From an uncultured Planctomycetales bacterium (GTDB lineage Bacteria > Omnitrophota > Gorgyraeia > Zapsychrales > JANLHA01): a stretch of DNA of 64,000 nucleotides. The position numbers and the translations under genes are program-made. The notes beneath the pieces were generated by a model that saw only the letters and a program-made list of their open reading frames with translations, did no database searches and was not told the origin of the DNA. The stretch is from contig CAYJXI010000008.1 of assembly GCA_964374105.1 (NCBI GenBank), positions 2,589 through 66,588 on the forward strand, given 5' to 3'. Positions 2 through 60,844 of this stretch are shown in pieces. Position 1 is the first letter of the stretch. Each line of letters starts with the position of its first letter.

Positions 2-769
2 AATAAAATCAATTCTTCGGATATCAATATTATCACTTTAGAGGATCCCGTGGAATATAAGATCATGGGGATGAACCAATGTGATATTAGAACCCGTTCT
101 GATTTTAAATTTTCCGATGGACTCAAAGCCGTATTAAGACAGGACCCAGATGTGATTCTGGTGGGAGAGGTCAGGGACAAAGAGACCGCGGATATCGCCA
201 TTCGGGCTGCCATCTCTGGACATTTGGTATTTAGCTCCATTCACGCTAATAGTTCTATTGGTACAGTCGTAAGACTTGTCAACATGGGGTTGGAGCCTTT
301 TATGGTTTCTTATTCCATGATTGGAGCCATTGCCCAAAGGTTAGTCAGAAAAGTTTGCACCCAATGTAAGGTGGAAGAACCCGTCAATCAAGAATTGATT
401 AGTCATTTAAAGAATCATTATGAAATTGATATTGATTCTTTACTTCTTAAGAGTTCAAAATTTTTAGAAGGCAAGAAAGAGGACTCGCGTTCAGAATTCT
501 CTGCCAAGGGACAATCCCCTGTTTTTTATAAAGGTGCGGGCTGCCAATATTGTTTTGGGACAGGGTATATGGGCCGCGTGGGTATTTTTGAAATTGTATT
601 GTTTGATGAAGAGTTAAGACATGGGATTCTCCGTGGAGCAAATTCTTGGGAATTGCAAGATATTGCTATTCGAAAGGGTGCTAAAACTTTAGCCTTGGAT
701 GCCCTCCATAAGGTAAGAAGTGGTCTGACAAGTTTGGAAGAAGTTTATTCTATACTGATTGAAGATTAA
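2..769 (+). CDS. pilB: Type IV pilus / type II secretion assembly ATPase (PilB/GspE family), 5'-truncated by the window edge. Only the C-terminal part including the tetracysteine Zn module is present.
   Basis: The frame is open from nt 2 and encodes NIITLEDPVEYKI upstream of the tracked ORF. Motifs ILVGEVRD and LVFSSIHANS are present, with CTQC...CQYC cysteines typical of the GspE C-terminal domain. Confidence 0.85.
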   Translation, partial: NKINSSDINIITLEDPVEYKIMGMNQCDIRTRSDFKFSDGLKAVLRQDPDVILVGEVRDKETADIAIRAAISGHLVFSSIHANSSIGTVVRLVNMGLEPFMVSYSMIGAIAQRLVRKVCTQCKVEEPVNQELISHLKNHYEIDIDSLLLKSSKFLEGKKEDSRSEFSAKGQSPVFYKGAGCQYCFGTGYMGRVGIFEIVLFDEELRHGILRGANSWELQDIAIRKGAKTLALDALHKVRSGLTSLEEVYSILIED

Positions 770-781
770 ATAAATTAAATA

Positions 782-826
782 GGGACAGATACCTATTTTT
801 CAAAAAATAGGCATCTGTCCCCTTTT
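782..826 (+). terminator. Rho-independent terminator after pilB: 19-bp near-perfect stem GGGACAGATACCTATTTTT / AAAAATAGGCATCTGTCCC, 3-nt loop, then CTTTT
   Basis: The inverted repeat was read directly and is followed by a T-run 10 nt before the next ATG. Confidence 0.7.
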
Positions 827-836
827 ATGCTAATCA

Positions 837-2348
837 ATGAAACAATTAGACATTTTATTTATCCACCCTAACGCCTCGCAAAAGATCTATCAAGATCTCA
901 GTAAAGACTATTCTGCTATTGAACCCCCGATTTGGGCTGGAATGCTTTTATCGCACTGTCTTAAGGCTGGGTTTAGAGCGGAGATTCTAGATTGTGAAGC
1001 CTTGCATTTGTCCGATGAAGAGGCTTCCCAGAAAATCCAGAAATCAAATCCGCGTGTCGCCTGTTTTGTTATTTATGGCCAGCAGCCCAGTGCTAGTTCC
1101 CAGAATATGGAAGGAGCGGTCTCACTGGCCAAGACGATTAAAGGCTTAAATCCTCAAATCAAAATCCTGTTTGTGGGGGGGCATGTCAGTGCCTTACCAC
1201 GGGAGGTGATGGAGAAACATCTCTGTGTGGATATGGTTTGTCAGAATGAAGGGGTTTATACGATATCCACTCTGTTAAAAACGAATTTGAAAGATAACTT
1301 AAAGGAGGTCAATGGCCTAGGCTTTAGGAGCAACGGTATGACCATCTTAAATAAACCCTCCCCTATTGTCGCAAAGGAGGATCTTTCCCAGCAATTACCG
1401 GGCAGTGTCTGGGATAAATTGCCGATGAAACAGTATCGAACCGCTCTCTGGCATGCCTTGCCTAATGATTGTGTCCGCCAACCTTTTGCCGCATTATACA
1501 CAAGTTTAGGATGTCCTTTTCGATGTAGTTTTTGTATGATCAACATCATTAATCGGCAAGAGAATGAGTATGCGGATGGAAGCAACGTCTTTCGGTATTG
1601 GGATCCGGAATTCATCATTGAAGAATTTGATAAATTGGCTCGGATGGAGATAAAAAATATTAAGATCGCTGATGAGATGTTTGTTCTTAATCCCAATCAT
1701 TTTATGAAATTATGCCAATTGATTATTGAGAGAGGGTACCAGTTCAATCTCTGGTGCTATGCCAGGATTGATACCGTCAAAGAACAATATCTGGAAACTT
1801 TAAAGAAAGCCGGTGTGAATTTCTTAGCTTTAGGGATTGAGAGCGGGGATAAAAAGGTCAGAAGCGATGTCGTTAAGGGCAAGTTTGAGGAGATCGATAT
1901 CCGTGATATTGTCAAAAAAATCCGATCCCATGGGATTTATGTTGCTGCCAATTACATCTTTGGTCTTCCGGAAGATAATTTGGAGACAATGCAACGGACC
2001 CTGGATTTAGCCTTGGAATTAAATACCGAAATGGCTAATTTTTACAGTGCCATGGCTTATCCGGGAAGTCCTTTGTATGGAATCGCCCAAAAAGAAGGGT
2101 GGAGACTTCCCGAGACATACGCTGCATATTCTCAGCATTCTTATTATACTCAGCCATTACCCACAAAATATCTCACTCCCCAGCAAGTTCTGGCCTTTCG
2201 CGATGAGGCGTGGATGAAGTACCATACCAACCCTCGATTTTTGAATTTATTGAGAGAAAAATTTGGACAGATGGCTGTTGAGGAAACCGTAAGATCAACC
2301 AAGATCAAGTTAAGAAGAAAAATTTTAGAAGAGGTCACGACCGTATGA
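837..2348 (+). CDS. B12-binding (class B) radical SAM protein
   Basis: N-terminal Rossmann-like B12-binding region (ILFIHPN...PPIWAGMLLS...AEILD). CPFRCSFC CxxxCxxC radical SAM motif. Stop overlaps the next ATG (ATGA). Confidence 0.75.
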   Translation: MKQLDILFIHPNASQKIYQDLSKDYSAIEPPIWAGMLLSHCLKAGFRAEILDCEALHLSDEEASQKIQKSNPRVACFVIYGQQPSASSQNMEGAVSLAKTIKGLNPQIKILFVGGHVSALPREVMEKHLCVDMVCQNEGVYTISTLLKTNLKDNLKEVNGLGFRSNGMTILNKPSPIVAKEDLSQQLPGSVWDKLPMKQYRTALWHALPNDCVRQPFAALYTSLGCPFRCSFCMINIINRQENEYADGSNVFRYWDPEFIIEEFDKLARMEIKNIKIADEMFVLNPNHFMKLCQLIIERGYQFNLWCYARIDTVKEQYLETLKKAGVNFLALGIESGDKKVRSDVVKGKFEEIDIRDIVKKIRSHGIYVAANYIFGLPEDNLETMQRTLDLALELNTEMANFYSAMAYPGSPLYGIAQKEGWRLPETYAAYSQHSYYTQPLPTKYLTPQQVLAFRDEAWMKYHTNPRFLNLLREKFGQMAVEETVRSTKIKLRRKILEEVTTV

Positions 2349-3343
2349 TTATCAGCCGCACTCCTTTCCGTGTTTCATTTTTTGGAGGTGGAACAGATTA
2401 CCCGAAATGGTTTAAGGACTATAAGGGTGCAGTTGTGGCAACAACCATTGATAAGTATTGTTATATTACCTGCCGTTATCTTCCTCCTTTTTTTGAACAT
2501 AGATCAAGAATCATTTATTCTAAGATGGAACATGTCCGAAAAGTCAACGAGATTGATCACCCCGCTGTTCGAGAGGTTCTAAAATTCCTTAAAATTCGTC
2601 AAGGGATAGAAATTCATCATGATGGGGACCTGCCGGCCAGAACTGGTTTAGGGTCCAGTTCGTCATTTACTGTTGGACTTCTAAATAGTTTATATGCTTT
2701 GAAAGGAATCATGCCTACCAAAGAGCGTTTGTCCCAAGAGGCCATTTACGTTGAACAGGTGATGTGTCGCGACAATGTGGGTTGTCAGGATCAGACCTTG
2801 GCGGCCTATGGCGGGTTCAATTATATTGAGTTTGGCGGGAGTAATTATTTAAAGGTAAGTCATATAACTCTGACCGAAGAGAAATTGAAATATTTACAGA
2901 AATGCCTAATGCTTTACTTTACCGGTTTTTCTCGGATGGCCTCAGAGATTGCTGCCCATCAGATCAAAAATATTCCCAATAGAACAAAAGAACTTAAGGC
3001 CATGTATGAGATGACCAAAGAGGCTATTCGAATTCTCAATGGGAAGGACTTACTTGCCTTTGGGAAACTCCTGCATGAAAGTTGGATGCTCAAGAGGACG
3101 TTATCAGATAGGATTTCTACACATTTTATTGATGAGATTTATGAAACTGCCAAACGGGCTGGAGCCGTGGGGGGGAAACTTTTAGGAGCGGGGGGGGGTG
3201 GTTTTATCCTCCTGTTTGTCCCTCCCGAGAAGCAGAAGAAGATTAAAGAAAAACTTAAAAAATTACTTATGATTCCTTTTAAATTTGAGAATCTTGGTAG
3301 CCAAATTATATTCTATCAGCCCAATAGCGGGAAGGTGATTTAA
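2345..3343 (+). CDS. GHMP-family sugar kinase, most similar in motif pattern to D-glycero-alpha-D-manno-heptose 7-phosphate kinase (HddA)
   Basis: N-terminus RTPFRVSFFGGGTDYP and GHMP ATP motif PARTGLGSSSSF. Followed by an HddC-like nucleotidyltransferase, with GmhB in the same locus. Confidence 0.65.
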   Translation: MIISRTPFRVSFFGGGTDYPKWFKDYKGAVVATTIDKYCYITCRYLPPFFEHRSRIIYSKMEHVRKVNEIDHPAVREVLKFLKIRQGIEIHHDGDLPARTGLGSSSSFTVGLLNSLYALKGIMPTKERLSQEAIYVEQVMCRDNVGCQDQTLAAYGGFNYIEFGGSNYLKVSHITLTEEKLKYLQKCLMLYFTGFSRMASEIAAHQIKNIPNRTKELKAMYEMTKEAIRILNGKDLLAFGKLLHESWMLKRTLSDRISTHFIDEIYETAKRAGAVGGKLLGAGGGGFILLFVPPEKQKKIKEKLKKLLMIPFKFENLGSQIIFYQPNSGKVI

Positions 3344-3355
3344 ATTTTAAGTAAA

Positions 3356-3431
3356 AAGCTATCAGCTGTCAGCTTTCAGTTCAAAGATTCATTTTCATTA
3401 AATATTTCTGATAGCTGAAGGCTGATAGCTA
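3356..3431. repeat. Imperfect 23-bp-arm palindromic element (AGCTATCAGCTGTCAGCTTTCAG ... CTGATAGCTGAAGGCTGATAGCT). A second copy lies at 11908-11975.
   Basis: Arms read as reverse complements with about 20 of 23 positions pairing and a 28-nt loop. A related sequence recurs inside the 3' end of CDS 11161-11991. Confidence 0.55.
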
Positions 3432-3445
3432 ATAAGATATTCATT

Positions 3446-4174
3446 GTGAATCCATTAAATGAAATCGATGTTGTTATTTTATGTGGAGGATTAGGGAAAA
3501 GATTGCGGTCAGAGATTGGGCGTTCCCAAAAAACGATGGCCGCAATAAGAGGAGAGCCTTTCTTAAATATTTGGATCAGGGATCTCAGCAAGCAGGGATT
3601 TAGGCGGATCATTTTATGCACTGGCTATCGGGCCGAAAGTGTCCATCGTTACTATCGGAAGAATAATTTTGGGGTTGAGATTGTTTACAGTCGAGAAAAG
3701 AACCCTTTAGGGACGGGTGGGGCCCTTGGACATTCCGGGCCCATGATTCACAGTGATCCATTTTTTGTTTTAAATGGTGATTCGTATTGTGCTGTCAGTT
3801 TTAAGAAGCTCCTTTCTTATCACCATTTAAAGAAATCTCTTGTGACCATCGTTATTTCCAAGGTCAAAAATCAAAAAGATTACGGCTCGGTTAGTTTCCA
3901 TAAAGATAAGAGGATTACGGGTTTTAAGGAGAAGGTCGACTCTTCCTTAAAGAGGAGTCACGCTAGCACAGATTTTTATGCGAATGCTGGTATTTATTGT
4001 TTCCGAAAAAATATCTTTCAATTGATGCCCAAAGTCGCAATATTTTCTTTAGAAAAGGATTTTTTCCCAAGGTTGCTTCGGAAACCTGTTTTTGCCTTTA
4101 AAGTTAATACTCCGTTTTGGGATATAGGAACACCCTATCGTTATCAATATGCGCAAAGCGTTTTAAAAAGATAA
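3446..4174 (+). CDS. Sugar-1-phosphate nucleotidyltransferase, HddC-like (D-glycero-alpha-D-manno-heptose 1-phosphate guanylyltransferase candidate). GTG start.
   Basis: VVILCGGLGKRLRS G-G-x-G-x-R-L motif and overall similarity to HddC/RmlA-type short nucleotidyltransferases. Adjacent to the HddA-like kinase. Confidence 0.65.
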   Translation: MNPLNEIDVVILCGGLGKRLRSEIGRSQKTMAAIRGEPFLNIWIRDLSKQGFRRIILCTGYRAESVHRYYRKNNFGVEIVYSREKNPLGTGGALGHSGPMIHSDPFFVLNGDSYCAVSFKKLLSYHHLKKSLVTIVISKVKNQKDYGSVSFHKDKRITGFKEKVDSSLKRSHASTDFYANAGIYCFRKNIFQLMPKVAIFSLEKDFFPRLLRKPVFAFKVNTPFWDIGTPYRYQYAQSVLKR

Positions 4175-4189
4175 ATCTTACTTTCCTCC

Positions 4190-5437
4190 TTGGATTGCGA
4201 ACTGATTCCATATAAAATCGGAAAGTGTGATCAAAAATCCTCTATATCAACAGAAAGGTTAAAAAAGGTGACAACTCAGAAGGTCTTAAGTACAGAAGCC
4301 AAAACACAATATCGTGTTTCATTTGGGACAGTGTCCATAACCGAGGAAGCCCGTCATTTGATTGATAAGGCCCTTTCCAAAAAGCTTGTCACTCGGGGGA
4401 AATATGTTGAGGAATTTGAAAAACAATTTGCGAAATTATTTGGAACCAAAGAAGCCGTGGCCGTTAGCAGCGGCACTGACGCGGATGCCCTTTCGTTAGC
4501 GGTCCTTTATGATCATGGTGCAAAGCGGGGCGATGAGGTGATTATCCCGGCCTTGACCTTTATTGCCACGGGTAATAGTGTTTTTCAGGCAGGATTTAAA
4601 CCGGTTTTTGTTGATATTAAAAAAGATAATTTGAATATCAATGTCGATCAAATTGAAAAAGCCATAACCCCAAAAACCCGTGCCATTATGCCGGTCCATT
4701 TGATGGGGAAACCTTGCCCAATGGATCGCATCCTAGAAATCGCCAAGAAGTATAAGTTGTTTGTTATTGAAGATGCTGCCGAGGCGCATGGGGCGGAATA
4801 TAAAGGCAAAAAAATCGGAACGTTTGGGAACATGGCCGCGTTTAGTTTATATGCGGCGCATATTATTACAACGATTGAAGGTGGGATGGTGATTACCGAT
4901 GACCCCCAAATGGCGGACGCCTTAAGGTCATTGAGGAATCATGGGATCGTCAATAAATTTGAATTCCAAAGAATCGGGTTTTCGGCCAAGATGAATGAAA
5001 TCGAGGCCGCGATCGGGCTGGGGAATATTAAGATATTTTCCACCATTCTAGAACGCCGAAGAAGAAATCTCCTGTATCTTATAGATCAATTTAAGAAATT
5101 CGAGCATCTTTTTATTACCATCAAAGAAGAAAAAAATGAAAAGATTGGGCCGCATGCCTTCTCCATCATTTTAAGAGAAGGTTTAAAGTTTACCAAAGAT
5201 GAGTTTGTTGATTACTTGGACCAGGAGGGAATTGATTCAAGAAATTTGTTTTACTCTCTTCCCACCCAAACACCCAGTTATCGGTTTTTAGGATACCATT
5301 TAGGAGATTTCCCTGAGGCAGAGTATTGTGGGGATCATGGATTTCATATTGGTATCCATCAGGATCTTGAGTTAGAGCAACTCGACTATGTTGTTGAGAC
5401 CATCGAAAAATTCTTAAAATTAAAAGGAAGGAAATAA
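4190..5437 (+). CDS. DegT/DnrJ/EryC1-family PLP/PMP enzyme with His in place of the Schiff-base Lys: predicted ColD/E1-like nucleotide-sugar 3-dehydratase rather than an aminotransferase. TTG start in the ORF track; the true start may be downstream.
   Basis: SSGTDADALSLAV and EDAAEAHGA motifs are present. The active-site region reads AAFSLYAAHIITTIEGG, where consensus FSFxxxK has H; ColD and E1 dehydrases carry His at this position. Confidence 0.6.
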   Translation: MDCELIPYKIGKCDQKSSISTERLKKVTTQKVLSTEAKTQYRVSFGTVSITEEARHLIDKALSKKLVTRGKYVEEFEKQFAKLFGTKEAVAVSSGTDADALSLAVLYDHGAKRGDEVIIPALTFIATGNSVFQAGFKPVFVDIKKDNLNINVDQIEKAITPKTRAIMPVHLMGKPCPMDRILEIAKKYKLFVIEDAAEAHGAEYKGKKIGTFGNMAAFSLYAAHIITTIEGGMVITDDPQMADALRSLRNHGIVNKFEFQRIGFSAKMNEIEAAIGLGNIKIFSTILERRRRNLLYLIDQFKKFEHLFITIKEEKNEKIGPHAFSIILREGLKFTKDEFVDYLDQEGIDSRNLFYSLPTQTPSYRFLGYHLGDFPEAEYCGDHGFHIGIHQDLELEQLDYVVETIEKFLKLKGRK

Positions 5438-5444
5438 GGGAAAA

Positions 5445-5557
5445 AGGATTTGAGGATCAGAGGATTTAAGGAATAAATGACCAAAGAAACATTCCCTTTT
5501 GGATAACCAAATATTTTAACCCTTGAATCCTCAAATTCTAAAATTCCTAAATCCTCT
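5445..5557. promoter_or_regulatory. Array of four copies of a 12-mer AGGATTTRAGGA (two direct, two inverted) in the 128-bp intergenic region upstream of the GT4 gene: candidate operator array
   Basis: AGGATTTGAGGA (5445-5456) and AGGATTTAAGGA (5461-5472). The reverse complements ATCCTCAAATTC and TCCTAAATCCTC lie at 5527-5557. Confidence 0.35.
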
Positions 5558-5565
5558 ACTATATT

Positions 5566-6690
5566 ATGCGTATTGCTATCAATTGCCGATCATTTCTTAA
5601 CCGACAATATACCGGTATTGGGCGGTATGCTTATAACCTGGTGAAATCTTTGAGTGAAATTGACCATGACAATGAATACTGGCTTTATGCCCAAAAAAAA
5701 TATTTTGATTTCAAAAGACAAGTTCCGCGCATCTCGGCTAAAAATTTTTTTGTTAAAATCGATTGGTTAGGACGGGGGATTGATCGGACTCTTCATCCCG
5801 CTGATATCTATCATTCTCCCAGCCCAGACTATATTAATATCAGTCAGGCTAAGATCATTGTTACGGTTCACGATTTAGTCTACAAGACTTATCCCGAAGG
5901 ACATACCCCGCAAACCATCGAGACAACCGACAAACAGCTAAAGATGATTGTGGAGAAAGCCGACAAGATCATCTGTTGTTCTAAGAGTACAATCAAAGAC
6001 CTCTTGTATTTTTTTAAAGTGGATCCTCAAAAGGTATGCCTCGTTTATCAGGGGGTGGATAAAGCAATCTTTTATCCTATCAATGACATCGAAAGGAGAA
6101 AAGCCCAAAGCATCATCAAAAGAAAAGGGCTCATTCGTCCCTTTATTCTTTTTGTGGGAACGATTGAACCAAGAAAGAATCTTATGAATTTGTTGAAAGC
6201 CTTTTCCATCTTAAAAGAAAAAAAAAGATTCAATGGACAATTGGTTGTCATCGGAATGAAGGGATGGATGATTGAAGGTCTCGAGCAGGTGACTCAAAAA
6301 TTTAAGATTCAGAACTCGGTTCTGTTCCCAGGATATGTGACCGATGAACTCTTGCGCTATTTTTATAACCTGACCGAGGTCTTTGTTTTTCCTTCTTTTT
6401 ATGAAGGTTTTGGTTTCCCAATCGTGGAAGCCTTCAGTTGTGGAACCACGGTCATTACCTCTAATGTCTCTTCTTGTCCAGAAATTGCTTGTGAGGGGGC
6501 CAACCTTATCAACCCACACAGTCCTGAGGAAATCGCCAATGCTATTGGGCAGGTGATAGAAGATGAAAAACTACGTCTCAGTCTTAAAGAGAAAGCCCTC
6601 AAACGGGCGGAAGAGTTTTCCTTTTTAAAAACTGCTCAACAGACATTTAAGATTTACCAAGAAGTCTATGATTCAAGTGACAATGGGTAG
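5566..6690 (+). CDS. GT4-family (GT-B) glycosyltransferase
   Basis: C-terminal FPSFYEGFGFPIVEAFSCGTTVITS matches the GT4 EX7E/EGFG motif. Confidence 0.8.
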   Translation: MRIAINCRSFLNRQYTGIGRYAYNLVKSLSEIDHDNEYWLYAQKKYFDFKRQVPRISAKNFFVKIDWLGRGIDRTLHPADIYHSPSPDYINISQAKIIVTVHDLVYKTYPEGHTPQTIETTDKQLKMIVEKADKIICCSKSTIKDLLYFFKVDPQKVCLVYQGVDKAIFYPINDIERRKAQSIIKRKGLIRPFILFVGTIEPRKNLMNLLKAFSILKEKKRFNGQLVVIGMKGWMIEGLEQVTQKFKIQNSVLFPGYVTDELLRYFYNLTEVFVFPSFYEGFGFPIVEAFSCGTTVITSNVSSCPEIACEGANLINPHSPEEIANAIGQVIEDEKLRLSLKEKALKRAEEFSFLKTAQQTFKIYQEVYDSSDNG

Positions 6691-6727
6691 ATGATGAATC
6701 GATGCTGGGGTGAGGAGTTTTTAAACA

Positions 6728-7579
6728 ATGATGATCAGTGGATTTACGATTATCCGTAATGCAACGAAATTCAGTTATCCTGCGGAGGAATCCATTCTTT
6801 CTATCTTGCCCATCTGCGATGAATTTATTATTAATGTGGGGGATTCTGATGATAAGACTCTCGAAATGATGCAGTCTCTTCAACGTTCTTATCCTGACAA
6901 AATTCGTATCATTGAAAATAAATGGGATTTATCCGAAGGTAAAACGGTTTTATCTAAACAAACCAATATGGCCTTAAAAGAATGTAAAGGGGATTGGGCT
7001 TTTTATCTGCAGTCCGATGAGGTGATCCATGAAAAAGACCTTGTCCATTTAAGAAAGATCATGCACAGGTATTTAAAAGATGAAAATATTGATACCTTTC
7101 GATTCCCATGGTTGCATTTTTATGGGAGCTATTATCGTTACCGTATTGACAGCGGTTGGTATCAGAAACAAGATAGGATTATCCGCAATAACGGTGAGAT
7201 TGAGTCTTTTGGGGATGCTTATGGTTTTCAATGTAAAGACGGGCAGTCCCTCAAACGAAAGAATACAAATTGCTTCCTTTATCATTACGGATGGGTCCAT
7301 TCTGAGCCTGTGATGACCCAGAGAAGGATCAATGCTGAGAAAATTGGATTTACCACATTACAACAGAATGAGCGCGAGCGCGAGTACTCTTTTGGAGATT
7401 TGAACCGATTCCCGATATATTTTGGGAGCCATCCAGCGGTTATGAAAGAAAGGATCGCGGCTCATCATTTGAGTCAGAGAGATTCGGCGAAAATTCACAG
7501 GCGATATTGGTGGCATCCGTTTAAAATTTTCAAGATTAGATATAAGACTCCCTTTCGGCTGAAAACCCGTATTGCTTAA
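6728..7579 (+). CDS. Glycosyltransferase, GT2-like (GT-A fold)
   Basis: N-terminal FTIIRNA...YPAEESILSILPICDEFIINVGDSDDKT resembles GT2 nucleotide-binding and DxD regions. Weak. Confidence 0.4.
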   Translation: MMISGFTIIRNATKFSYPAEESILSILPICDEFIINVGDSDDKTLEMMQSLQRSYPDKIRIIENKWDLSEGKTVLSKQTNMALKECKGDWAFYLQSDEVIHEKDLVHLRKIMHRYLKDENIDTFRFPWLHFYGSYYRYRIDSGWYQKQDRIIRNNGEIESFGDAYGFQCKDGQSLKRKNTNCFLYHYGWVHSEPVMTQRRINAEKIGFTTLQQNEREREYSFGDLNRFPIYFGSHPAVMKERIAAHHLSQRDSAKIHRRYWWHPFKIFKIRYKTPFRLKTRIA

Positions 7580-7580
7580 T

Positions 7581-8645
7581 ATGAAATCCTTTAAAAAGAA
7601 TATTTATGCCGTGATTTTGGCGGGTGGAACAGGGACACGATTTTGGCCGATGAGTCGAAATAAAAAGCCAAAACAGTTTCTTAACCTTTTTGGGAAAAGA
7701 TCATTGTTTAAGGAAACCCTCCTTCGGATCAAATCTTTAATCCCTTCTTCTCATGTGTTGATTGTCACAAATTCACATTTTAGAAAGATTATTAATGACG
7801 AAATAAGACCTTTCCAGATTCCTAGGGCTAATATCTTGTGCGAACCCGAAGGAAAAAATACCGCCCCGGCTATCTGTTGGGCAGCCAGATACATTTTAAG
7901 GAAGAATAAAGAAGGGGTGATGGTGGTGTTGCCTTCGGATCATTTGATCCTCAATCAAAAGGCCTTTTTAAAAAATATAAAAAAGGCCATTGGACTGGCC
8001 GAAAAAGATTATCTTGTGACCTTAGGGATTGTCCCTACGCGACCGGAAACAGGTTACGGGTATCTTAAATTTAAAGTGTTCCGAGATGGTAATAAAAGTT
8101 TATTTAAAGTTGAAAAATTCACAGAGAAACCAACACGATCTTTAGCGCAAAAGTTTATTAGGCAAAAAAGGTATTTGTGGAACAGTGGGATGTTCGTCTT
8201 CAAGTGTTCGGTGATTCTTCGGCAATTCCAGCGCTATCTTCCTTCTATTTATTCCATTTTCCAAAAGGAAAAAACCGTCACCAGGAGATTGTGGATCAAA
8301 TTACCGCAGATCTCTATAGATTATGGAATTTTAGAAAAGGCAAAAAATGTGGTGACGATCCCTGCCTATGACATGCGCTGGTCGGATTTGGGAAGCTTTG
8401 AATCACTCTTTGAGGTCATGAAAACCGACAGCCAAGGAAATATCATTAAGGGTAAGGCTATTGCTTTGGAATGCCGAGATTCCTTGATCCTTGGGAAGAA
8501 TCGTCTGATTGCGGCTGTAGGATTGAAAGATTATCTGATTGTTGATAGCGATGATGCTGTCCTTATCTGTAGTAAAGATAACTCACAGAAGATCCGAGAA
8601 GTCGTAGCGCTATTAAAAAGTTCAAGACAAGAAAGTTTAACCTAA
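7581..8645 (+). CDS. manC: Mannose-1-phosphate guanylyltransferase-like nucleotidyltransferase (ManC N-terminal type, no cupin domain)
   Basis: AVILAGGTGTRFWPMSRNKKPKQFLNLFG is the ManC/GDP-mannose pyrophosphorylase signature. ATG at 7581 sits 1 nt after the upstream stop; the ORF track's TTG at 7572 is less likely. Confidence 0.7.
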   Translation: MKSFKKNIYAVILAGGTGTRFWPMSRNKKPKQFLNLFGKRSLFKETLLRIKSLIPSSHVLIVTNSHFRKIINDEIRPFQIPRANILCEPEGKNTAPAICWAARYILRKNKEGVMVVLPSDHLILNQKAFLKNIKKAIGLAEKDYLVTLGIVPTRPETGYGYLKFKVFRDGNKSLFKVEKFTEKPTRSLAQKFIRQKRYLWNSGMFVFKCSVILRQFQRYLPSIYSIFQKEKTVTRRLWIKLPQISIDYGILEKAKNVVTIPAYDMRWSDLGSFESLFEVMKTDSQGNIIKGKAIALECRDSLILGKNRLIAAVGLKDYLIVDSDDAVLICSKDNSQKIREVVALLKSSRQESLT

Positions 8646-8647
8646 TT

Positions 8648-8738
8648 TGACGGCTCGGGGAGTTTCTCGAGCCGTCATGACCTCTTGGGTAAGGTAGCCC
8701 CTGACTGCCGTCAGGCAGGTAAAATTCCCCGAGGGCTC
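8648..8738. repeat. Structured intergenic region with multiple hairpins (TGACGGCTCG/CGAGCCGTCA 10-bp stem; CCTGAC-TGCC-GTCAGG) and a direct repeat GAGTTTCTC
   Basis: Inverted repeats read directly between the manC-like stop and the GT9 start. Confidence 0.4.
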
Positions 8739-8769
8739 AATTGAGTTTCTCCCAAAGGAGTGTGAAGGA

Positions 8770-9858
8770 TTGTCTTATAAAAAAGTCCTCATTATTAATA
8801 TTTTTGGTATTGGCGATGTGCTTTTTACCATCCCTTTGATGAATAATCTTAAAACCAATCTTCCGGATATCAGAATTGGCTATGTTGCTAATAGTCGAAC
8901 AGCGGGACTGCTTAAGTCTGTTCCCTATATTAATCAAGTTTTTATTTATGATCGGGATGAATATCATTCTCTTTATCAAAAGTCCAAAATTCAATTTATG
9001 AAAAAGTTTCTTCATGACCTTAAAGCCATTAAAAAGGAGGGATATGATCTTGTTTTTGATTTATCGCTCAATCCTTATGCGGGTTTGTTGATGGGACTTA
9101 TTGGAATTCGCTATCGGATTGGATTTAATTATAAAAATCGGACTCCCTTTTTAACAAAAAGAGTCCCCTTAGAGGGATATGAAGGTCGCCATGTGATTGA
9201 ATATTATCTTGATTTATTGAGAGCCTTGGGACTGAAGGTCACATCTAACCATTGGGAACTCCCTTTAGACCGCCAAGATGTGGAGTGGGTTAAAAATTTT
9301 TTGACTCAACACCGGATCGATCAGAAAGATTTAGTCATTGGGCTTTTCCCGGGAGGAGGGGCCAGCTGGGGGAAGGAGGCTCACCTGAAGCGCTGGCCAG
9401 CGGATCGATTTTCACAATTAGCTGATAAAATTATTGAAAATTTTGCTTGCTCCCTTATACTGTTGGGAGACAAGAATGAGAGAAAACTTTGTGAGGAAGT
9501 AGCTTCCTTGATGAATCATAAAGCCTCTGTGGCTTGTGGCCAATTGACCTTAGGTCAACTGGCAGCAATGTTGTCCCAATGTTCCTTAGCCATAATGAAT
9601 GATGGAGGGCCTTTGCATCTGGCGGTGGCGGTTGGGACAAAGACAGTCTCAATCTTTGGTCCGGTGGATGAAGAAGTTTATGGCCCTTACCCATTGGGGT
9701 CGCATAGTGTCGTAACTCACCCTATTGCCTGTCGACCTTGTTATCGGCAATTTCGTCGGGCAAGCTGTGAACATATCAGTTGTCTTTCTCAACTGAAAGT
9801 TGAGGGTGTTTTTGATAAAGTGAGGAAAATTATTGAAATGACTACTCTAAAGACTTAA
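8770..9858 (+). CDS. GT9-family glycosyltransferase (heptosyltransferase-like), TTG start
   Basis: N-terminal KKVLIINIFGIGDVLFTIPLMNNLK matches the heptosyltransferase RfaF/RfaC-type ILIIRLSxLGDVLxTxP motif. AAGGAG lies 11 nt upstream. Confidence 0.7.
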   Translation: MSYKKVLIINIFGIGDVLFTIPLMNNLKTNLPDIRIGYVANSRTAGLLKSVPYINQVFIYDRDEYHSLYQKSKIQFMKKFLHDLKAIKKEGYDLVFDLSLNPYAGLLMGLIGIRYRIGFNYKNRTPFLTKRVPLEGYEGRHVIEYYLDLLRALGLKVTSNHWELPLDRQDVEWVKNFLTQHRIDQKDLVIGLFPGGGASWGKEAHLKRWPADRFSQLADKIIENFACSLILLGDKNERKLCEEVASLMNHKASVACGQLTLGQLAAMLSQCSLAIMNDGGPLHLAVAVGTKTVSIFGPVDEEVYGPYPLGSHSVVTHPIACRPCYRQFRRASCEHISCLSQLKVEGVFDKVRKIIEMTTLKT

Positions 9859-9915
9859 AGAAAATTATCTAAAAATTATACTGATATTTTTTTCAAAGAA
9901 AGGTTATTGTTCTTC

Positions 9916-11016
9916 ATGCAAGTCCAATTCATTGATTTTAGAAAGCAGTATGAGGCGATCAAAGACGAAATTGATGTAGGCCTTAAGAAGGTTTTTGAGA
10001 AAGGGGATTTTATTTTAGGTAAAGAAGCCCAAGATTTTGAGGAAGAATTTGCTCAATATTGTGAGGCTCAGTATGCGGTGGGAGTTAATTCTGGAACGGA
10101 TGCCTTGTATCTGGCCCTGGCAGCCTTAGACGTTAAAGTGGGAGATGAGGTCATTTTACCTGCTTTTACTTTTATTGCCACCGCTCTGTGTATCTCCTAC
10201 GCTGGGGCCAAACCCGTATTTGTTGATATAGAACCGGAAACTTATAATCTTGATCCTAAAAAATTAAAAAAGGCTATCACTAAGAAAACAAAGGCCATTA
10301 TCCCGGTCCACATTTATGGTCAGGCGGCGGATATGAATGAAATCCTTGCTATTGCAAAGGAAAATAAACTCAAAGTCGTTGAGGACGCCGCTCAGGCCCA
10401 TGGTGCGAAGTATGAGGGAAGGAAGATCGGTTCTTTAGGGGAGGTAGCGTGTTTTAGTTTTTATCCCACCAAAGGGTTAGGGGCGTTCGGAGATGCAGGG
10501 ATGATTGTCACTAAAGATAAATCCATCTATGAAAAAGCCAAAATGTTAAGGGATTATGGCCGAATCGGCCGCTATGAACATAAAGTTAAAGGATATAATT
10601 CTCGCCTGGATACTATTCAAGCTGTTATTTTATCCGCTAAATTAAAATACTTGGATGAATGGAATGCCATGCGTGATGAAAAAGCCGCGTACTATTGTCA
10701 GCTTTTAAAAAGCAGTGATGGGGTGAAGACTCCTACGATAAAGCCTAACCGAACACACGTATTTCAGACATTTGCTATCCGAATTAAAAATCGAAATAAG
10801 ATATGTGAAGCATTAAACCAAAGAGGAATTGGCACTCTCATTCATTACCCAATTCCTTTGCATCTGCAGGAGGCCTACAAAGAATTGGGTCACAAACGGG
10901 GTGACTTTCCTATTTCAGAATTAATAGCGGATGAAATCCTTTCCCTTCCTATGTTCCCGCATATCTCAAAAAAGCAGATAGAATTTGTTTGCGATCAATT
11001 GAAGGAAGTCATCTAA
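9916..11016 (+). CDS. DegT/DnrJ/EryC1-family PLP-dependent sugar aminotransferase (Lys intact)
   Basis: MQVQFIDFRKQYEAI start typical of the family. GVNSGTDALYLAL, EDAAQAHGA and FSFYPTKGLGAFGDAGMIVT with the PLP Lys. The ATG at 9916 has an AAAGG RBS, whereas the upstream TTG at 9907 in the ORF track has poor spacing. Confidence 0.8.
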   Translation: MQVQFIDFRKQYEAIKDEIDVGLKKVFEKGDFILGKEAQDFEEEFAQYCEAQYAVGVNSGTDALYLALAALDVKVGDEVILPAFTFIATALCISYAGAKPVFVDIEPETYNLDPKKLKKAITKKTKAIIPVHIYGQAADMNEILAIAKENKLKVVEDAAQAHGAKYEGRKIGSLGEVACFSFYPTKGLGAFGDAGMIVTKDKSIYEKAKMLRDYGRIGRYEHKVKGYNSRLDTIQAVILSAKLKYLDEWNAMRDEKAAYYCQLLKSSDGVKTPTIKPNRTHVFQTFAIRIKNRNKICEALNQRGIGTLIHYPIPLHLQEAYKELGHKRGDFPISELIADEILSLPMFPHISKKQIEFVCDQLKEVI

Positions 11017-11114
11017 GCTTTTCCTAAAAACAAAGGATAAAGTTTTCCTAAAGGATATCTTTAAAGAATAACTAAATTGCTCAAACACCTTAAAGAAAAT
11101 ATTTTCCTTGGTTA

Positions 11115-11143
11115 TTGTTCCAAACTTTAACATCAAGTATACT
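11115..11143 (+). promoter_or_regulatory. Candidate sigma70-like promoter TTGTTC-N17-TATACT upstream of the GT2 gene, preceded by direct repeats TTTTCCTAAA..AAGGATA (x2)
   Basis: Hexamers and spacing read directly; the -35 is weak (3 of 6). Confidence 0.25.
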
Positions 11144-11160
11144 AAGAAAGTTATTAAATC

Positions 11161-11991
11161 ATGAAGAAGGTCAATCTCTCGGTTGTTATTCTTACAAAAA
11201 ACGAAGAAAATAATATTGAAAGTTGCCTGTCGAGTGTTCATGACTGGGCAGATGAGATTATTGTTGTTGATGATGAAAGTACCGATCAAACTTTAACGAT
11301 TGCGGAAAATTATGCTGATCAGATACTTAAACGCAAGATGGAGAATGAAGGAAGCCATCGAAACTGGGCTTATCAAAAGGCAAAGCATGAGTGGGTCCTC
11401 AGCCTTGATGCCGATGAAATGGTGACTGAGGAATTACAACGGGAGATTGAGGACAATTTAAAGGATAACGACTGTGCCGCCTTTGCTATACCTTTAAGGA
11501 CTTACATCGGTGATTACTGGGTCAAATATGGGGGATGGTATCCGGCTAGCAAGATCCGTTTGTTTAAGAAAACCAAATTCCGTTACGAAGAGGTCGAAGT
11601 CCATCCCCGGGCCTTTGTGGATGGGAAAGCGGGAAGTTTAACGAAAGATATTATCCATAAAGGGTATCCCGATTTCGAACATTTCTTAGCGAGTCTCAAT
11701 CGCCAGACAACTTTAGAGGCCCAAAAATGGATTCGAACGGGACAAAGAATCACAACCGGACGGATTGTCCGTCGATCGGTTGACCGATTCTTCCGAACCC
11801 TCATCCGTAAAAGGAGTTTCAAAGACGGTTTTATGGGATTTATGATTGCGTATTTTGCCTCTTTGTACCAAGTGATGAGTTTTGCAAAATACTGGGAAAT
11901 GAAAAGAAAGCTATCAGCTCACAGCCTTCAGAAACCAGATGAAAAACTGAATACTGAAGGCTTAAGGTCTGAAAGCTCTAACGGAGTATAA
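11161..11991 (+). CDS. GT2-family glycosyltransferase with a C-terminal about 25-aa tail encoded by a palindromic repeat element
   Basis: LSVVILTKNEENNIESCL...IIVVDDESTDQT GT2 signature. The last about 80 nt coincide with the second copy of the AGCTATCAGC palindrome. Confidence 0.8.
   Translation: MKKVNLSVVILTKNEENNIESCLSSVHDWADEIIVVDDESTDQTLTIAENYADQILKRKMENEGSHRNWAYQKAKHEWVLSLDADEMVTEELQREIEDNLKDNDCAAFAIPLRTYIGDYWVKYGGWYPASKIRLFKKTKFRYEEVEVHPRAFVDGKAGSLTKDIIHKGYPDFEHFLASLNRQTTLEAQKWIRTGQRITTGRIVRRSVDRFFRTLIRKRSFKDGFMGFMIAYFASLYQVMSFAKYWEMKRKLSAHSLQKPDEKLNTEGLRSESSNGV
11908..11975. repeat. Second copy of the AGCTATCAGC...CTGAAGGCT palindromic element, embedded in the 3' end of the GT2 CDS
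   Basis: AAGCTATCAGCTCACAGCCTTCAG at 11908-11931 versus AAGCTATCAGCTGTCAGCTTTCAG at 3356-3379. The partner arm CTGAAGGCT...TCTGAAAGCT follows. Confidence 0.5.
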
Positions 11992-11994
11992 AAG

Positions 11995-12549
11995 ATGAAA
12001 GTGGTCTTTCTCGATCGGGATGGCGTGATCAATGAGTTCCCAGGTAACGGGAGTTATGTCACGAAGGTTAAGGATTTTCGCTTTATCCCAAGATCGCTAG
12101 AAGCCTTGAGGATGTTGACGCAATCAGGATACACCATTTTTGTTGTTTCCAATCAGGCGGGTGTGGGCAAGGGAATTTATAGTCGAGATAAATTAAAAAG
12201 TATCACCCGCTTTATGCACAAGGAAGCCCATAAGATGGGAGGAAAGATTAAAAGAGTCTTTTATTGCACGCATACTCCTCAAGCTGGTTGTGGTTGTCGC
12301 AAGCCTGACATTGGTTCCATTCGTAAGGCCTTGGGTTCACTGAAGAAATCGATGCGGTCAGCAAGGAAAGCCTTTTTTGTAGGAGATACCGGGGTGGACA
12401 TTGAGACGGGGTACAATGCCGGCTGCAAGACGATCTTTGTTCTCTCAGGACGGGAAGATCGTGGATATATGAGGAAATGGAGTGTACGTCCGGATTATAT
12501 TGTTAAAGATCTTTATGAGGCCGCAAAGATTATCCTTAAGTTAAGATAA
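11995..12549 (+). CDS. gmhB: D-glycero-D-manno-heptose 1,7-bisphosphate phosphatase (HAD family)
   Basis: FLDRDGVIN HAD motif I and the CTHTPQAGCGCRKP zinc-binding signature specific to GmhB. Confidence 0.85.
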   Translation: MKVVFLDRDGVINEFPGNGSYVTKVKDFRFIPRSLEALRMLTQSGYTIFVVSNQAGVGKGIYSRDKLKSITRFMHKEAHKMGGKIKRVFYCTHTPQAGCGCRKPDIGSIRKALGSLKKSMRSARKAFFVGDTGVDIETGYNAGCKTIFVLSGREDRGYMRKWSVRPDYIVKDLYEAAKIILKLR

Positions 12550-12611
12550 GGTGTCCACTTTTTTGGTTAGCCATTCTCATTTTTTAGACCAATTGATGGG
12601 CCTAGATAATC

Positions 12612-13700
12612 ATGAAAATCCTTGTCATTTACGCCACTGCCGGTGCCGGTCACAGAAGAGCCGCCGAAGCCATCTATCAAGGTCTTAAGTCTTCCCCTCA
12701 ATTTCAAGTTACCCTGGCGGATGTTTTGGATCATACCAATCGTTTTTACAAAATTCTTTACAGTGGGACCTATACATTTTTTATCTCAAAGATTCCTCCG
12801 GTTTGGGGGATTTTATTTCAAATTTTAGATTGTCGCTCTTTATTACCGATAATCAATTTATTCCGTCGCACCTTTAATGCGATCAATGCGAGGAGATTTC
12901 ATCACTTTCTCGTGAAAGAAAATTTTGATTATATCCTTTCAACCCATTTTTTCCCAAACGAGGTGGCCGCTTATCTGAAACGAAAGGGTTTGATCCGTTC
13001 TCAAATTATTTCCGTTATCACGGATTATGATGTCCATCAAATTTGGCTGGCCGAAGGAATTGATTATTATTGTGTCGCTTGCGAACTCACGAAAAGAAAA
13101 TTGTTACAATTGGGAATCAAAGAAAATTACGTTGTCATAACCGGTATTCCGGTAGATGAAAAGTTTATTCAGCCATGGAATAAAGCGGAATTGAGAAAGA
13201 AACTTGGTCTTAAGGAGAATATTTTCACCGTGTTGGTGGCCACCGGATCCTTTGGGATCGGCCCGATTGAGGAGATCATCAATCTTTCTCTGCCTTTGGG
13301 TTTTCAGGTTATTGTTGTGTGCGGTCACAATAAGGTCCTTTATGATCGCCTGAGTCGGTCGGTGAGAGTGGGAGGGAAAATATACGGTTTGGTGAAAAAC
13401 ATGGATGAATTGATGGCGGTGAGTGATATGATGATCACCAAACCGGGAGGGTTATCGATCACCGAGGCCCTCGTTACTGGCCTTCCGTTGATTTTTTTTA
13501 GTGCCATACCTGGACAAGAGACAAATAATATTAAAATTCTATCTCAATATGGTGTTGGCCGTAGCGGTTCCTTGGAAGGGATAGGAAATGTTCTTAAGTC
13601 GTTGGGAGATTCACCATCGGAATATCAAAATCTTAAAGAGAAAATTAAGGCCATCGCCAGACCGCATGCTGTCAAAGATATCATCGCCCTGATTCAATAA
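12612..13700 (+). CDS. Diacylglycerol glycosyltransferase (MGDG-synthase / UgtP-like, GT28)
   Basis: N-terminus MKILVIYATAGAGHRRAAEAI (MGDG synthase domain). C-terminal ITKPGGLSITEAL GT28 motif. Confidence 0.7.
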   Translation: MKILVIYATAGAGHRRAAEAIYQGLKSSPQFQVTLADVLDHTNRFYKILYSGTYTFFISKIPPVWGILFQILDCRSLLPIINLFRRTFNAINARRFHHFLVKENFDYILSTHFFPNEVAAYLKRKGLIRSQIISVITDYDVHQIWLAEGIDYYCVACELTKRKLLQLGIKENYVVITGIPVDEKFIQPWNKAELRKKLGLKENIFTVLVATGSFGIGPIEEIINLSLPLGFQVIVVCGHNKVLYDRLSRSVRVGGKIYGLVKNMDELMAVSDMMITKPGGLSITEALVTGLPLIFFSAIPGQETNNIKILSQYGVGRSGSLEGIGNVLKSLGDSPSEYQNLKEKIKAIARPHAVKDIIALIQ

Positions 13701-13721
13701 ATTCTCTCATTTTCGAATTTC

Positions 13722-16744: not shown

Positions 16745-17761
16745 ATGCCTGAATTACGCAAAGATCCAGTGGTTGGTCGGTGGGTCATTATTGCCACCGA
16801 ACGGGCAAGGCGACCGGGTTCCTTTATCGGCCAGCAAGATAACAATTTTGATCCGAATCAAAAATGCCAATTCTGTAATAATCAAGATCCAGAAATTTAC
16901 GCCATTAAAGCTCAAGGATTTCAGGGGAATGGGGCTTGGCAGATCCGGGTTGTTCCCAGTGGAACGCCTTTATTGAAAATGGACACTTCGTTTAAACGAC
17001 GGGGACATGGACTTTATGATGTGGTCAACGGATATGGTGTCCATGAAGTTGTTATAGAAACCCCCCAGCACATTGCCAATATGGCGGATTTGGATTTTAA
17101 ACAGATTCAGCTGGTTCTTGAGACGTATGTCGTACGATTCAATGAATTGGAAAAGAATCCGAATTTTCAATATGTGATTGCCTACAAAAATTATGGCTGG
17201 GCAGCGGGAAGTCGAAGAATTGGCCATTCCCGCTCTCAGATTATCGCCACCCCCGTCAATCCCTTAAGAGTCAAAGAAAAATTGATTGGGGCGAAACGCT
17301 ATTTTGATCTCCATGATCGCTGTCTTTATTGTGATCTGATCCTCCAGGAAAGGGAAATAAAAAAGAGGGTGGTGGTGGAATCAGAACATTTTTTAGCGGT
17401 TACACCTTTTGCTCCGCGTTTTGCTTTTGAGATCTGGATTCTCCCTAAGAAACATCATTGTGATTTTGCTAAAGGGATCATCGGTCAACAAGAGGATCTG
17501 GCCAAGGTTTTAAAGGAAATTTTATTAAGACTTAAAGTAGGGATTGATGATCCATCTTACAATTATGTGATTCATACGGCTCCTTTCCGTCATGGCGAAA
17601 AGGGACAGCGTTGGAAAACGATCGAGGAAGATTATCACTGGCACATTGAGGTTATGCCCAGATTAACCCGAGCGGCTGGATTTGAGAAGGGGACAGGGTT
17701 TTATATCTGTTCTATTCCCCCCGAAAATACGGCTGAGTATTTGCGCGAGGTACAGATTTAA
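16745..17761 (+). CDS. Galactose-1-phosphate uridylyltransferase-family protein (HIT-like GalT, type 1), paralog 1; nucleophilic His replaced by Arg
   Basis: ELRKDPVVGRWVIIATERARRP and the CQFC Zn motif. The active-site region is GHSRSQII where the paralog has HAHSQII. Confidence 0.7.
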   Translation: MPELRKDPVVGRWVIIATERARRPGSFIGQQDNNFDPNQKCQFCNNQDPEIYAIKAQGFQGNGAWQIRVVPSGTPLLKMDTSFKRRGHGLYDVVNGYGVHEVVIETPQHIANMADLDFKQIQLVLETYVVRFNELEKNPNFQYVIAYKNYGWAAGSRRIGHSRSQIIATPVNPLRVKEKLIGAKRYFDLHDRCLYCDLILQEREIKKRVVVESEHFLAVTPFAPRFAFEIWILPKKHHCDFAKGIIGQQEDLAKVLKEILLRLKVGIDDPSYNYVIHTAPFRHGEKGQRWKTIEEDYHWHIEVMPRLTRAAGFEKGTGFYICSIPPENTAEYLREVQI

Positions 17762-50213: not shown

Positions 50214-50230
50214 TGAACAGGCTTTCAAGG

Positions 50231-60831: not shown

Positions 60832-60844
60832 TATAAGGAATAAC

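Follow-up and report, generated by a model that had tools for sequence, protein, structure and literature searches.

The DNA considered here is a stretch of 64,000 nucleotides (contig CAYJXI010000008.1 of assembly GCA_964374105.1; "the window" denotes the whole of it) from an uncultured bacterium of the Omnitrophota lineage, and its subject is a gene of the DegT family whose product carries a histidine where the aminotransferases of this family have their Schiff-base lysine. The segment AAFSLYAAHIITTIEGG is located within the open reading frame (ORF) 4190..5437 (+), which, read mechanically, opens at a TTG in position 4190; the gene itself is most likely 4268..5437 (+), with 389 aa and a GTG start at 4268, because the database protein that is 100% identical to it (P0001) has 389 aa and because the motif AGAAAGG lies some 10 nt upstream of that codon. 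The Pfam profile DegT_DnrJ_EryC1 spans the full length of the product (E=5e-106), which places it among the fold-type I aminotransferases, and the column of the Schiff-base Lys is occupied by His198 (His224 of the long ORF), encoded by the CAT at 4859-4861 (+).

The initial annotation had already read this residue as a histidine in the place of the lysine, and the alignments bear it out. In the comparison with solved structures (phmmer), His198 pairs with Lys186 of the GDP-perosamine synthase of Caulobacter (PDB 3bn1/3dr4), 'fslyaaHiittiegg' against 'fsffgnKiittgegg', and it also pairs with His188 of ColD (the GDP-4-keto-6-deoxy-D-mannose 3-dehydratase of E. coli O55, PDB 2gms; BLASTP) and with H220 of E1 (also RfbH or DdhC, the CDP-6-deoxy-L-threo-D-glycero-4-hexulose 3-dehydrase, PDB 3bcx), residue 188 of ColD being pinned down by the mutant chains H188N, H188K and S187N/H188K of the PDB, the last of which is the ColD variant that turned into an aminotransferase. 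The histidine is kept in 119 of 120 close homologues (72-80% identity), all the named ones belonging to Candidatus Omnitrophota. Given this conservation, and since any Lys codon is two substitutions away from CAT, the loss of the lysine is genuine and cannot be put down to chance substitution, to an indel artefact or to faulty sequencing. The other two DegT genes of the window (9907-11016 and 60821-62107) retain the lysine. The homologues are labelled 'dTDP-4-amino-4,6-dideoxygalactose transaminase' by JGI and 'DegT/DnrJ/EryC1/StrS family aminotransferase' by NCBI, and both labels probably misstate the chemistry of these Lys-free proteins.

To find relatives of the query protein, 1.84 billion representatives of 50%-identity clusters were searched exhaustively with HMMER, and the 150 nearest were retained; 88 of these have His at the Schiff-base column and 58 have Lys, which makes the His-type clade a large one. 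The test of its unity was a distance tree (neighbour-joining, NJ) with 30 bootstrap replicates only. The NJ trees part the His from the Lys types cleanly, and the separation survives removal of the K/H column itself: the His types make up a single split in 28/30 replicates and the query shares one Lys-free side with ColD and E1 in 30/30, so that the kinship with these two enzymes proposed by the initial annotation is upheld. The three proteins also have in common a His-clade signature made up of a loop insertion at 81-83, F/L110, A197, K241, a residue other than Pro at 331, G362 and Q365, whereas the Lys types have Ala at 110, Asn at 197, Arg at 241 and Pro at 362; the columns predicted to bind the cofactor (Asp169, Ser193 and Gly69 of the 'SSGT' loop) are kept, and are at least 93% conserved in His and Lys types alike. 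The high rank of perosamine synthase, the top PDB match, had raised the possibility of an independent change from Lys to His within the lineage of that enzyme, and this is ruled out by the tree without the K/H column together with the shared signature positions. Judged by its sequence, then, the query genuinely belongs to the Lys-free clade and shares its descent with the characterised dehydratases.

To our knowledge, the only Lys-free DegT enzymes characterised in depth are E1, ColD and SpnQ. All the characterised enzymes with the change from Lys to His, these three, are C3-dehydratases of nucleoside-diphosphate (NDP) sugars (PMC8987622). Within this group, the query lacks the Cys-rich insertion that holds the [2Fe-2S] cluster of E1, and it contains only 2 Cys. 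RfbH is its best NCBIfam match, although with 263 bits against an equivalog cut-off of 423, and the match is broken in two at the very point of the Cys-rich insertion; in a focused alignment, the insertion that follows 'RNHG' is wholly deleted in the Omnitrophota branch, while an E1-like Cys-rich loop is still present there in the relatives P0122 and P0236. An enzyme of the E1/SpnQ type, with the four-Cys motif of its Fe-S cluster, is therefore ruled out, and the cluster-free mechanism of ColD becomes the best available model. Neither can the query be regarded as an orthologue of ColD, in view of an identity of 32% and the lack of any short-chain dehydrogenase/reductase (SDR) in the window. 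Thus, where the initial annotation had spoken of a 3-dehydratase of the ColD/E1 type, what stands is that the protein is probably of the dehydratase type, and in a heptose context, but it is neither of the E1 type nor an orthologue of ColD.

The AlphaFold2 model of the query is confident (pLDDT 90.9), and in Foldseek it superposes on sugar aminotransferases, E1 and ColD about alike, with template-modelling (TM) scores of 0.8-0.9; with scores this uniform across the DegT structures, function cannot be told from the fold. Other His-type DegTs come fused to glycosyltransferase domains of families GT2 and GT4, to SDR and to methyltransferase domains (P0122 and P0123 are fusions with GT2), and from their sequences the fusions with GT2, GT4 and SDR domains fit a role of the His types in the biology of nucleotide sugars. 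One representative, P0136 (689 aa), has an intein splicing domain inserted.

The gene is embedded in an array of genes on the same strand (+, 837-13700), after the end of which come priA and then fmt (Table 1). Upstream of it lie a radical S-adenosylmethionine (SAM) enzyme with a B12-binding domain, a sugar kinase and a nucleotidyltransferase. For the kinase, HddA is the best NCBIfam match, with 140 bits where the cut-off is 600, and for the nucleotidyltransferase HddC reaches 139 bits against 300; the depositor's name for the structures closest to the latter is '6-deoxy-D-mannoheptose pathway protein'. HddC is the heptose-1-phosphate guanylyltransferase that produces GDP-heptose. The Lys-type DegT encoded further along the array could aminate a 4-keto sugar.

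Table 1. Features of the window, with thiamine diphosphate (ThDP) enzyme genes of related loci in the last row (GT, glycosyltransferase; MGDG, monogalactosyldiacylglycerol; PMP, pyridoxamine 5'-phosphate)
Feature	Coordinates	Strand	Basis and remarks
B12-binding radical SAM enzyme	837..2348	+	Pfam B12-binding and Radical_SAM; weak HpnJ/BchE/AprD4-type matches; first cassette gene here
GHMP sugar kinase, HddA/WcbL-like	2345..3343	+	NCBIfam HddA E=8.5e-41; best PDB matches 4usk, 3k85, 4n3o, E ~1e-37
Sugar-1-phosphate nucleotidyltransferase, HddC-like	3446..4174	+	NCBIfam HddC; best PDB 5xhw/6jq8 (Yersinia HddC)
His-type DegT, predicted PMP-dependent cluster-free NDP-sugar C3-dehydratase	4268..5437	+	Pfam DegT; His clade
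GT4 glycosyltransferase	5566..6690	+	Pfam; follows the His-DegT in many loci
GT2-like glycosyltransferase	6728..7579	+	Weak Pfam match; 55-70% identity in related loci
ManC-type mannose-1-phosphate guanylyltransferase, without isomerase domain	7572..8645	+	NCBIfam GMP_PMI, 342 bits against cut-off 373
GT9 heptosyltransferase-family glycosyltransferase	8770..9858	+	Pfam Glyco_transf_9; weak NCBIfam heptosyltransferase II/III
Lys-type DegT aminotransferase, 'FSFYPTKGLG'	9907..11016	+	Pfam; kept in second syntenic block
GT2 glycosyltransferase	11161..11991	+	Domain search
GmhB-type heptose 1,7-bisphosphate phosphatase (HAD-IIIA)	11995..12549	+	NCBIfam PRK08942, 153 bits against cut-off 178
MGDG/diglucosyl-diacylglycerol-synthase-like GT28 glycosyltransferase	12612..13700	+	Closes conserved block before priA
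Two adjoining paralogous GalT/HIT-like genes (galactose-1-phosphate uridylyltransferase family)	16745-17761, 17761-18765	+	Just downstream of fmt
Five ORFs of 512-636 aa	20109-21914, 22887-24536, 24547-26199, 38052-39962, 43417-44955		No Pfam match
LPG_synthase_TM gene	21955-22899
B12-binding radical SAM ORFs	837-2348, 26313-28067, 31852-33333, 41823-43259, 48777-50267, 50231-51613, 51619-53028, 53034-54380, 56017-57462, 59368-60831, 62195-63493
Other radical SAM genes	28088-29080, 39948-41009, 46519-47730		SPASM domain in the second; the third MiaB-like
Third DegT-family gene (428 aa)	60821-62107	+	Pfam match split by an insertion; Lys kept, 'VFSFKMGKNLP'; B12-radical-SAM genes on both sides
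ThDP-enzyme examples in related loci	L001:3485-5549, L030:3644-4918, L087:5821-7030, L085:2421-3545

A scan of the species genomes of GTDB yielded 57 Omnitrophota loci with orthologues that are 66-80% identical, the ORFs of which were typed by BLASTP against reference proteins; the counts that follow are lower bounds, and their denominators are the loci with enough flanking sequence. The order up to the gene is [UDP-sugar dehydrogenase]-SDR_A-[ThDP enzyme]-SDR_B-B12-radical SAM-GHMP kinase-nucleotidyltransferase-His-DegT, and after it [GT4-GT2-ManC]-GT9-Lys-DegT-GT2-GmhB-MGDG-like-PriA-Fmt. The nucleotidyltransferase adjoins the His-DegT in at least 54 of 57 loci, a GHMP kinase is found in at least 44 of 54, a B12-radical-SAM gene upstream of the His-DegT in at least 40 of 50, SDR_B in at least 41 of 47, and ManC at its position in the array in at least 19 of 49; further upstream, a UGDH-like gene occurs in at least 15 of 38 and SDR_A, which bears the UDP-xylose-synthase motif STSEVYGDP, in at least 30 of 40. 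SDR_B has 'TNSGYG' and YxxxK and lacks the Asp/Glu pair of the dehydratases, and it matches PDB 6vo6/6vo8 end to end over 308 residues (390 bits, 56% identity), far above any other structure. We take 6vo6 to be Cj1427 of C. jejuni, a GDP-heptose C4-dehydrogenase, with which the depositor's molecule name is consistent. In the metagenomic locus L085, where the His-DegT is 51% identical, there are an SDR_B-like protein (46%), a split ThDP enzyme and the B12-radical-SAM enzyme (59%), and the kinase and transferase genes are missing between the latter and the His-DegT; SDR_B, the B12-radical-SAM enzyme and the His-DegT therefore form a deep core triad. The gene for LptD adjoins the cassette in one other locus, and GT9 and AsmA lie near it in the present genome, neighbours suggestive of a glycolipid of the outer membrane.

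The ThDP enzymes found upstream in many cassettes come in two forms, a PDH-E1 alpha/beta pair and a small split pair of E1_dh and Transket_pyr, and some of the related cassettes add an extra SDR, a carbamoyltransferase and an SxtJ-like protein. The ThDP and extra upstream genes suggest C-branched or chain-extended sugars, as in the biosynthesis of yersiniose or avilamycin; the genes for ThDP enzymes, carbamoyltransferase, SxtJ-like protein and extra SDR are all absent from the window. The loci of the scan from outside Omnitrophota (L060-L083) proved uninformative as a context for the His type, every readable DegT motif in them being of the Lys type and mostly perosamine-synthase-like; the locus of Neobacillus, for example, combines ManC, GMD, a NeuD-type acetyltransferase and a Lys-type DegT.

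The reading of the gene that we favor, with moderate confidence and from sequence and synteny, is that it would encode a nucleotide-sugar C3-dehydratase dependent on PMP, with a cluster-free mechanism like that of ColD, and with GDP-4-keto-heptose as its most likely substrate. The cofactor state, the substrate and the product that we infer would be as follows. Pyridoxal 5'-phosphate (PLP) would be converted by L-glutamate into PMP, which would form a ketimine with the C4 carbonyl of the NDP-4-keto sugar; His198 would take the C4' proton, the C3 hydroxyl would leave, and hydrolysis would free the 3-deoxy-4-keto sugar and ammonia. As for the origin of the substrate, GDP-heptose would be made by the HddA-like kinase, the HddC-like guanylyltransferase and GmhB, and would be oxidized at C4 by the Cj1427-type dehydrogenase, whose gene is conserved as the opening gene of the cassette in most Omnitrophota and is not in the window. 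The product would then be GDP-3-deoxy-4-keto-heptose, with its 6-OH retained, which could be modified further by the B12-radical-SAM enzyme, by reduction, or through amination by the Lys-type DegT, and the GT4, GT2 and GT9 enzymes would move the modified heptose to an envelope glycolipid.

The feasibility of such chemistry follows from work on Campylobacter. There, the Cj1427-type C4-dehydrogenase gives a 4-keto sugar in which the 6-position is not deoxygenated, and Cj1427 combined with the C3-dehydratase of serotype HS:5, glutamate and PLP produces GDP-D-glycero-3-deoxy-4-keto-heptose, through which 'novel' 3-deoxy-heptoses were reached in vitro (PMC10680097). Since a Cj1427-type enzyme and a dehydratase of the ColD type work together in vitro, the proposed chemistry is feasible, and the cassette looks like a natural version, by analogy, of this route. 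Both proceed by oxidation at C4 by a Cj1427-type enzyme and then dehydration at C3 by a Lys-free DegT; however, the Campylobacter route combines artificially two enzymes from different serotypes, whereas the Omnitrophota genes are neighbors in a conserved cassette, the query is a distant paralogue of the Campylobacter dehydratase, and the gene for the dehydrogenase is missing from this window. Two consequences concern the initial annotation, which had offered a 3-deoxy or a 3,6-dideoxy sugar as the product and had counted the absence of a 4,6-dehydratase from the genome as a refutation. The search in the 64-kb window found no 4,6-dehydratase, nor any SDR, but the refutation is not a valid one, because the conserved partner in the relatives is of the Cj1427 type and carries out no 6-deoxygenation. 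No 4,6-dehydratase is therefore needed, and the balance shifts from a 3,6-dideoxy sugar towards a 3-deoxy-heptose as the more likely product.

A wider and more tentative proposal, which we hold to be doubtful although worth stating, is that of a phylum-wide pathway to a 6-hydroxy 3-deoxy-heptose, or to a C-methylated or branched one, in which the C4-dehydrogenase, the His-DegT and the B12-radical-SAM enzyme would act as one unit. The dehydratase would turn glutamate into 2-oxoglutarate, and this output may feed the dehydrogenase, thus coupling the two enzymes, in that a ping-pong dehydrogenase would use 2-oxoglutarate to reoxidize its bound NADH; alternatively, the dehydrogenase loaded with NADH would reduce the 3-deoxy-4-keto product, in a redox-neutral sequence that would need no separate reductase. 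The radical SAM enzyme, or in some genomes the ThDP enzymes upstream, would add chemistry that is new for nucleotide heptoses.

Several observations weigh against the dehydration of a GDP-4-keto-heptose as the function of this gene. The query shares no more than 32-33% identity with ColD and E1, as against 39% with the aminotransferase GDP-perosamine synthase, the bit scores against solved structures follow the same direction (phmmer: GDP-perosamine synthase 226, ColD 190, E1 174), the predicted backbone is nearer to that of GDP-perosamine synthase, and the active-site loop 195-197 of the AlphaFold2 model is poorly modelled; we know of no characterised member of the 'AAH(I/V)' sub-clade to which the query belongs. 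On the side of the sugar, the initial annotation had named HddA-like, HddC-like, GmhB and ManC genes in the neighborhood, and these are indeed the best matches, but the HddA-, HddC- and GmhB-like proteins all score under the NCBIfam equivalog cut-offs, and therefore the sugar could be another higher-carbon one. GmhA, the sedoheptulose-7-phosphate isomerase, moreover gave no match in the window or in the 84 loci L001-L084 in a tblastn search (E<=1e-5) with the E. coli sequence as the query, and its gene may lie elsewhere in the genome. With regard to the 4-keto group, no ORF of at least 100 aa in the window has an SDR or epimerase domain in Pfam, tblastn with SDR_A and SDR_B gave no match there, and so the origin of the 4-keto substrate is not visible from the window. 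In the matching contig CAMTXN010000017.1, likewise, no SDR, be it a C4-dehydrogenase or a 4,6-dehydratase, is encoded within 10 kb upstream of the gene, and the upstream genes there encode AsmA, MgtE_N/CBS, an Exo_endo_phos-family protein, PilZ and T2SSE. As regards an SDR_B on another contig of the same metagenome-assembled genome, the single candidate looked up (P0375) belonged to other assemblies; locus L018 is likewise without SDRs. Finally, the cassette has no obvious C4-reductase, and the tightly linked B12-radical-SAM gene has a role that the model leaves unexplained.

This last gene enters into the first of the alternative explanations, that of a Lys-free PMP enzyme with other chemistry, either a stoichiometric or glutamate-driven transamination at C4 or a new reaction coupled to the B12-radical-SAM enzyme, which remains linked to the 51%-identical His-DegT of L085 even without the intervening kinase and transferase genes. 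The compact, perosamine-synthase-like scaffold, from which all the loop insertions of E1 and ColD are deleted, and a sub-clade with no characterised member known to us leave room for such a deviation. Furthermore, SpnQ without its reductase acts as an aminotransferase, but C3 dehydration is the reaction of every His-type member characterised (PMC8987622). The signature residues of the His clade are shared by the query, and the array already has a Lys-type aminotransferase of the ordinary kind, so that we consider this explanation unlikely.

Less probable still would be a pathway of the colitose type, in which GDP-mannose, supplied by ManC and processed by a GMD encoded elsewhere, would give GDP-4-keto-6-deoxy-D-mannose, to be dehydrated to a 3,6-dideoxyhexose. 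ManC (7572-8645) does lie in the same array, and ColD and GDP-perosamine synthase, both of them enzymes of GDP-6-deoxyhexoses, are among the best matches with solved structure; however, ManC was detected in at least 19 of 49 loci, as against a GHMP kinase and an HddC-like gene that almost always adjoin the His-DegT, a GMD came to light neither in the window nor among the Omnitrophota loci sampled, whose conserved SDR is Cj1427-like, with 'TNSGYG' in place of the dehydratase motif T-[DS]-E, and a ColC-type reductase is absent.

The upstream UGDH-like gene (at least 15 of 38 loci) and the SDR_A with the UXS motif (at least 30 of 40) in the relatives, together with the good structural matches to ArnB-type enzymes, would accord with a UDP-4-keto-pentose, derived from UDP-glucuronate, as the substrate and a 3-deoxy-pentose as the product; we hold this to be very improbable, as those two genes are farther off, more variable and absent from the window, while the His-DegT has as its conserved immediate neighbours the gene of the kinase, that of the guanylyltransferase-like protein and that of the Cj1427-like SDR. 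Finally, a catalytically dead or purely structural homologue of the aminotransferases, which the missing Schiff-base Lys might bring to mind, is scarcely credible for a protein with 72-80% conservation across the phylum, an invariant His, Asp169, Ser193 and phosphate loop, an intact and confidently predicted fold, and Lys-free relatives that are known to be active.

In the favored reading, that of a cluster-free C3-dehydratase acting on GDP-4-keto-heptose, the closest known systems can be set beside the query as follows. ColD shares with it the DegT fold, the histidine (H188 and H198, respectively) and the lack of an Fe-S cluster, and ColD and its heptose orthologues of C. jejuni HS:5 and HS:11 share the context of GDP-sugars and heptoses, the heptose C3-dehydratases of Campylobacter being 62-67% identical to ColD (PMC10440746). 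However, ColD has 'SHHI' where the query has 'AAHI', it bears after 'RAHG' a loop of about 25 residues which is deleted in the query, and its partner is a 4,6-dehydratase, whereas that of the query in related genomes is a C4-dehydrogenase, with the link to a B12-radical-SAM enzyme on the query's side only. E1 and SpnQ are also of the His type and have the 'AH' dipeptide at the active site, but they differ in the Cys-rich insertion with its [2Fe-2S] cluster, and for the query no reductase partner of the E3 type would be expected. GDP-perosamine synthase, the solved structure that the query matches best in sequence, resembles it in its compact scaffold and is among the best folds (TM 0.87 normalized by the query and 0.93 by the target); in contrast, it keeps Lys186 and Asn185 and stands on the Lys side of the tree, while at some nine further positions the query bears the signature of the His clade.

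The enzyme class is thus already known, and what is probably new here is a deep-branching, insertion-free and cluster-free His-type DegT in a cassette with a Cj1427-like SDR and a B12-radical-SAM enzyme; this branch is a conserved part of an envelope-glycan locus throughout the candidate phylum Omnitrophota. Should the proposed function be true, D-glycero-3-deoxy-heptoses, obtained until now only in vitro from mixed Campylobacter enzymes, would have in the cassette their first natural route, prior 4,6-dehydration would not be required for C3-deoxygenation, and the orphan B12-radical-SAM enzyme would gain a testable substrate context. The finding also bears on annotation, as these proteins are currently labelled aminotransferases in the databases.

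As for the rest of the window, an apparently perfect hairpin with a stem of 19 bp lies at 781-822, in the 67-nt gap between the T2SSE and B12-radical-SAM genes, exactly where the SDR genes sit in most relatives; it may be a terminator or the scar of a rearrangement, and a scan for promoters and terminators over 600-13800 gave nothing else above shuffled expectation. Downstream of the array, strongly negative AT skew is found at 20-26 kb and 38-40 kb. The 64 kb hold eleven B12-binding radical SAM ORFs and three other radical SAM genes, interspersed with GT2, YdjC, PMT_2 and DUF2079 genes, in what looks like a large region for the tailoring of glycans or lipids. Most of the B12-binding ORFs are 20-34% identical to one another, and the genes that begin at 48777, 50231 and 51619 form a tandem triplet with identities of 58-74%.

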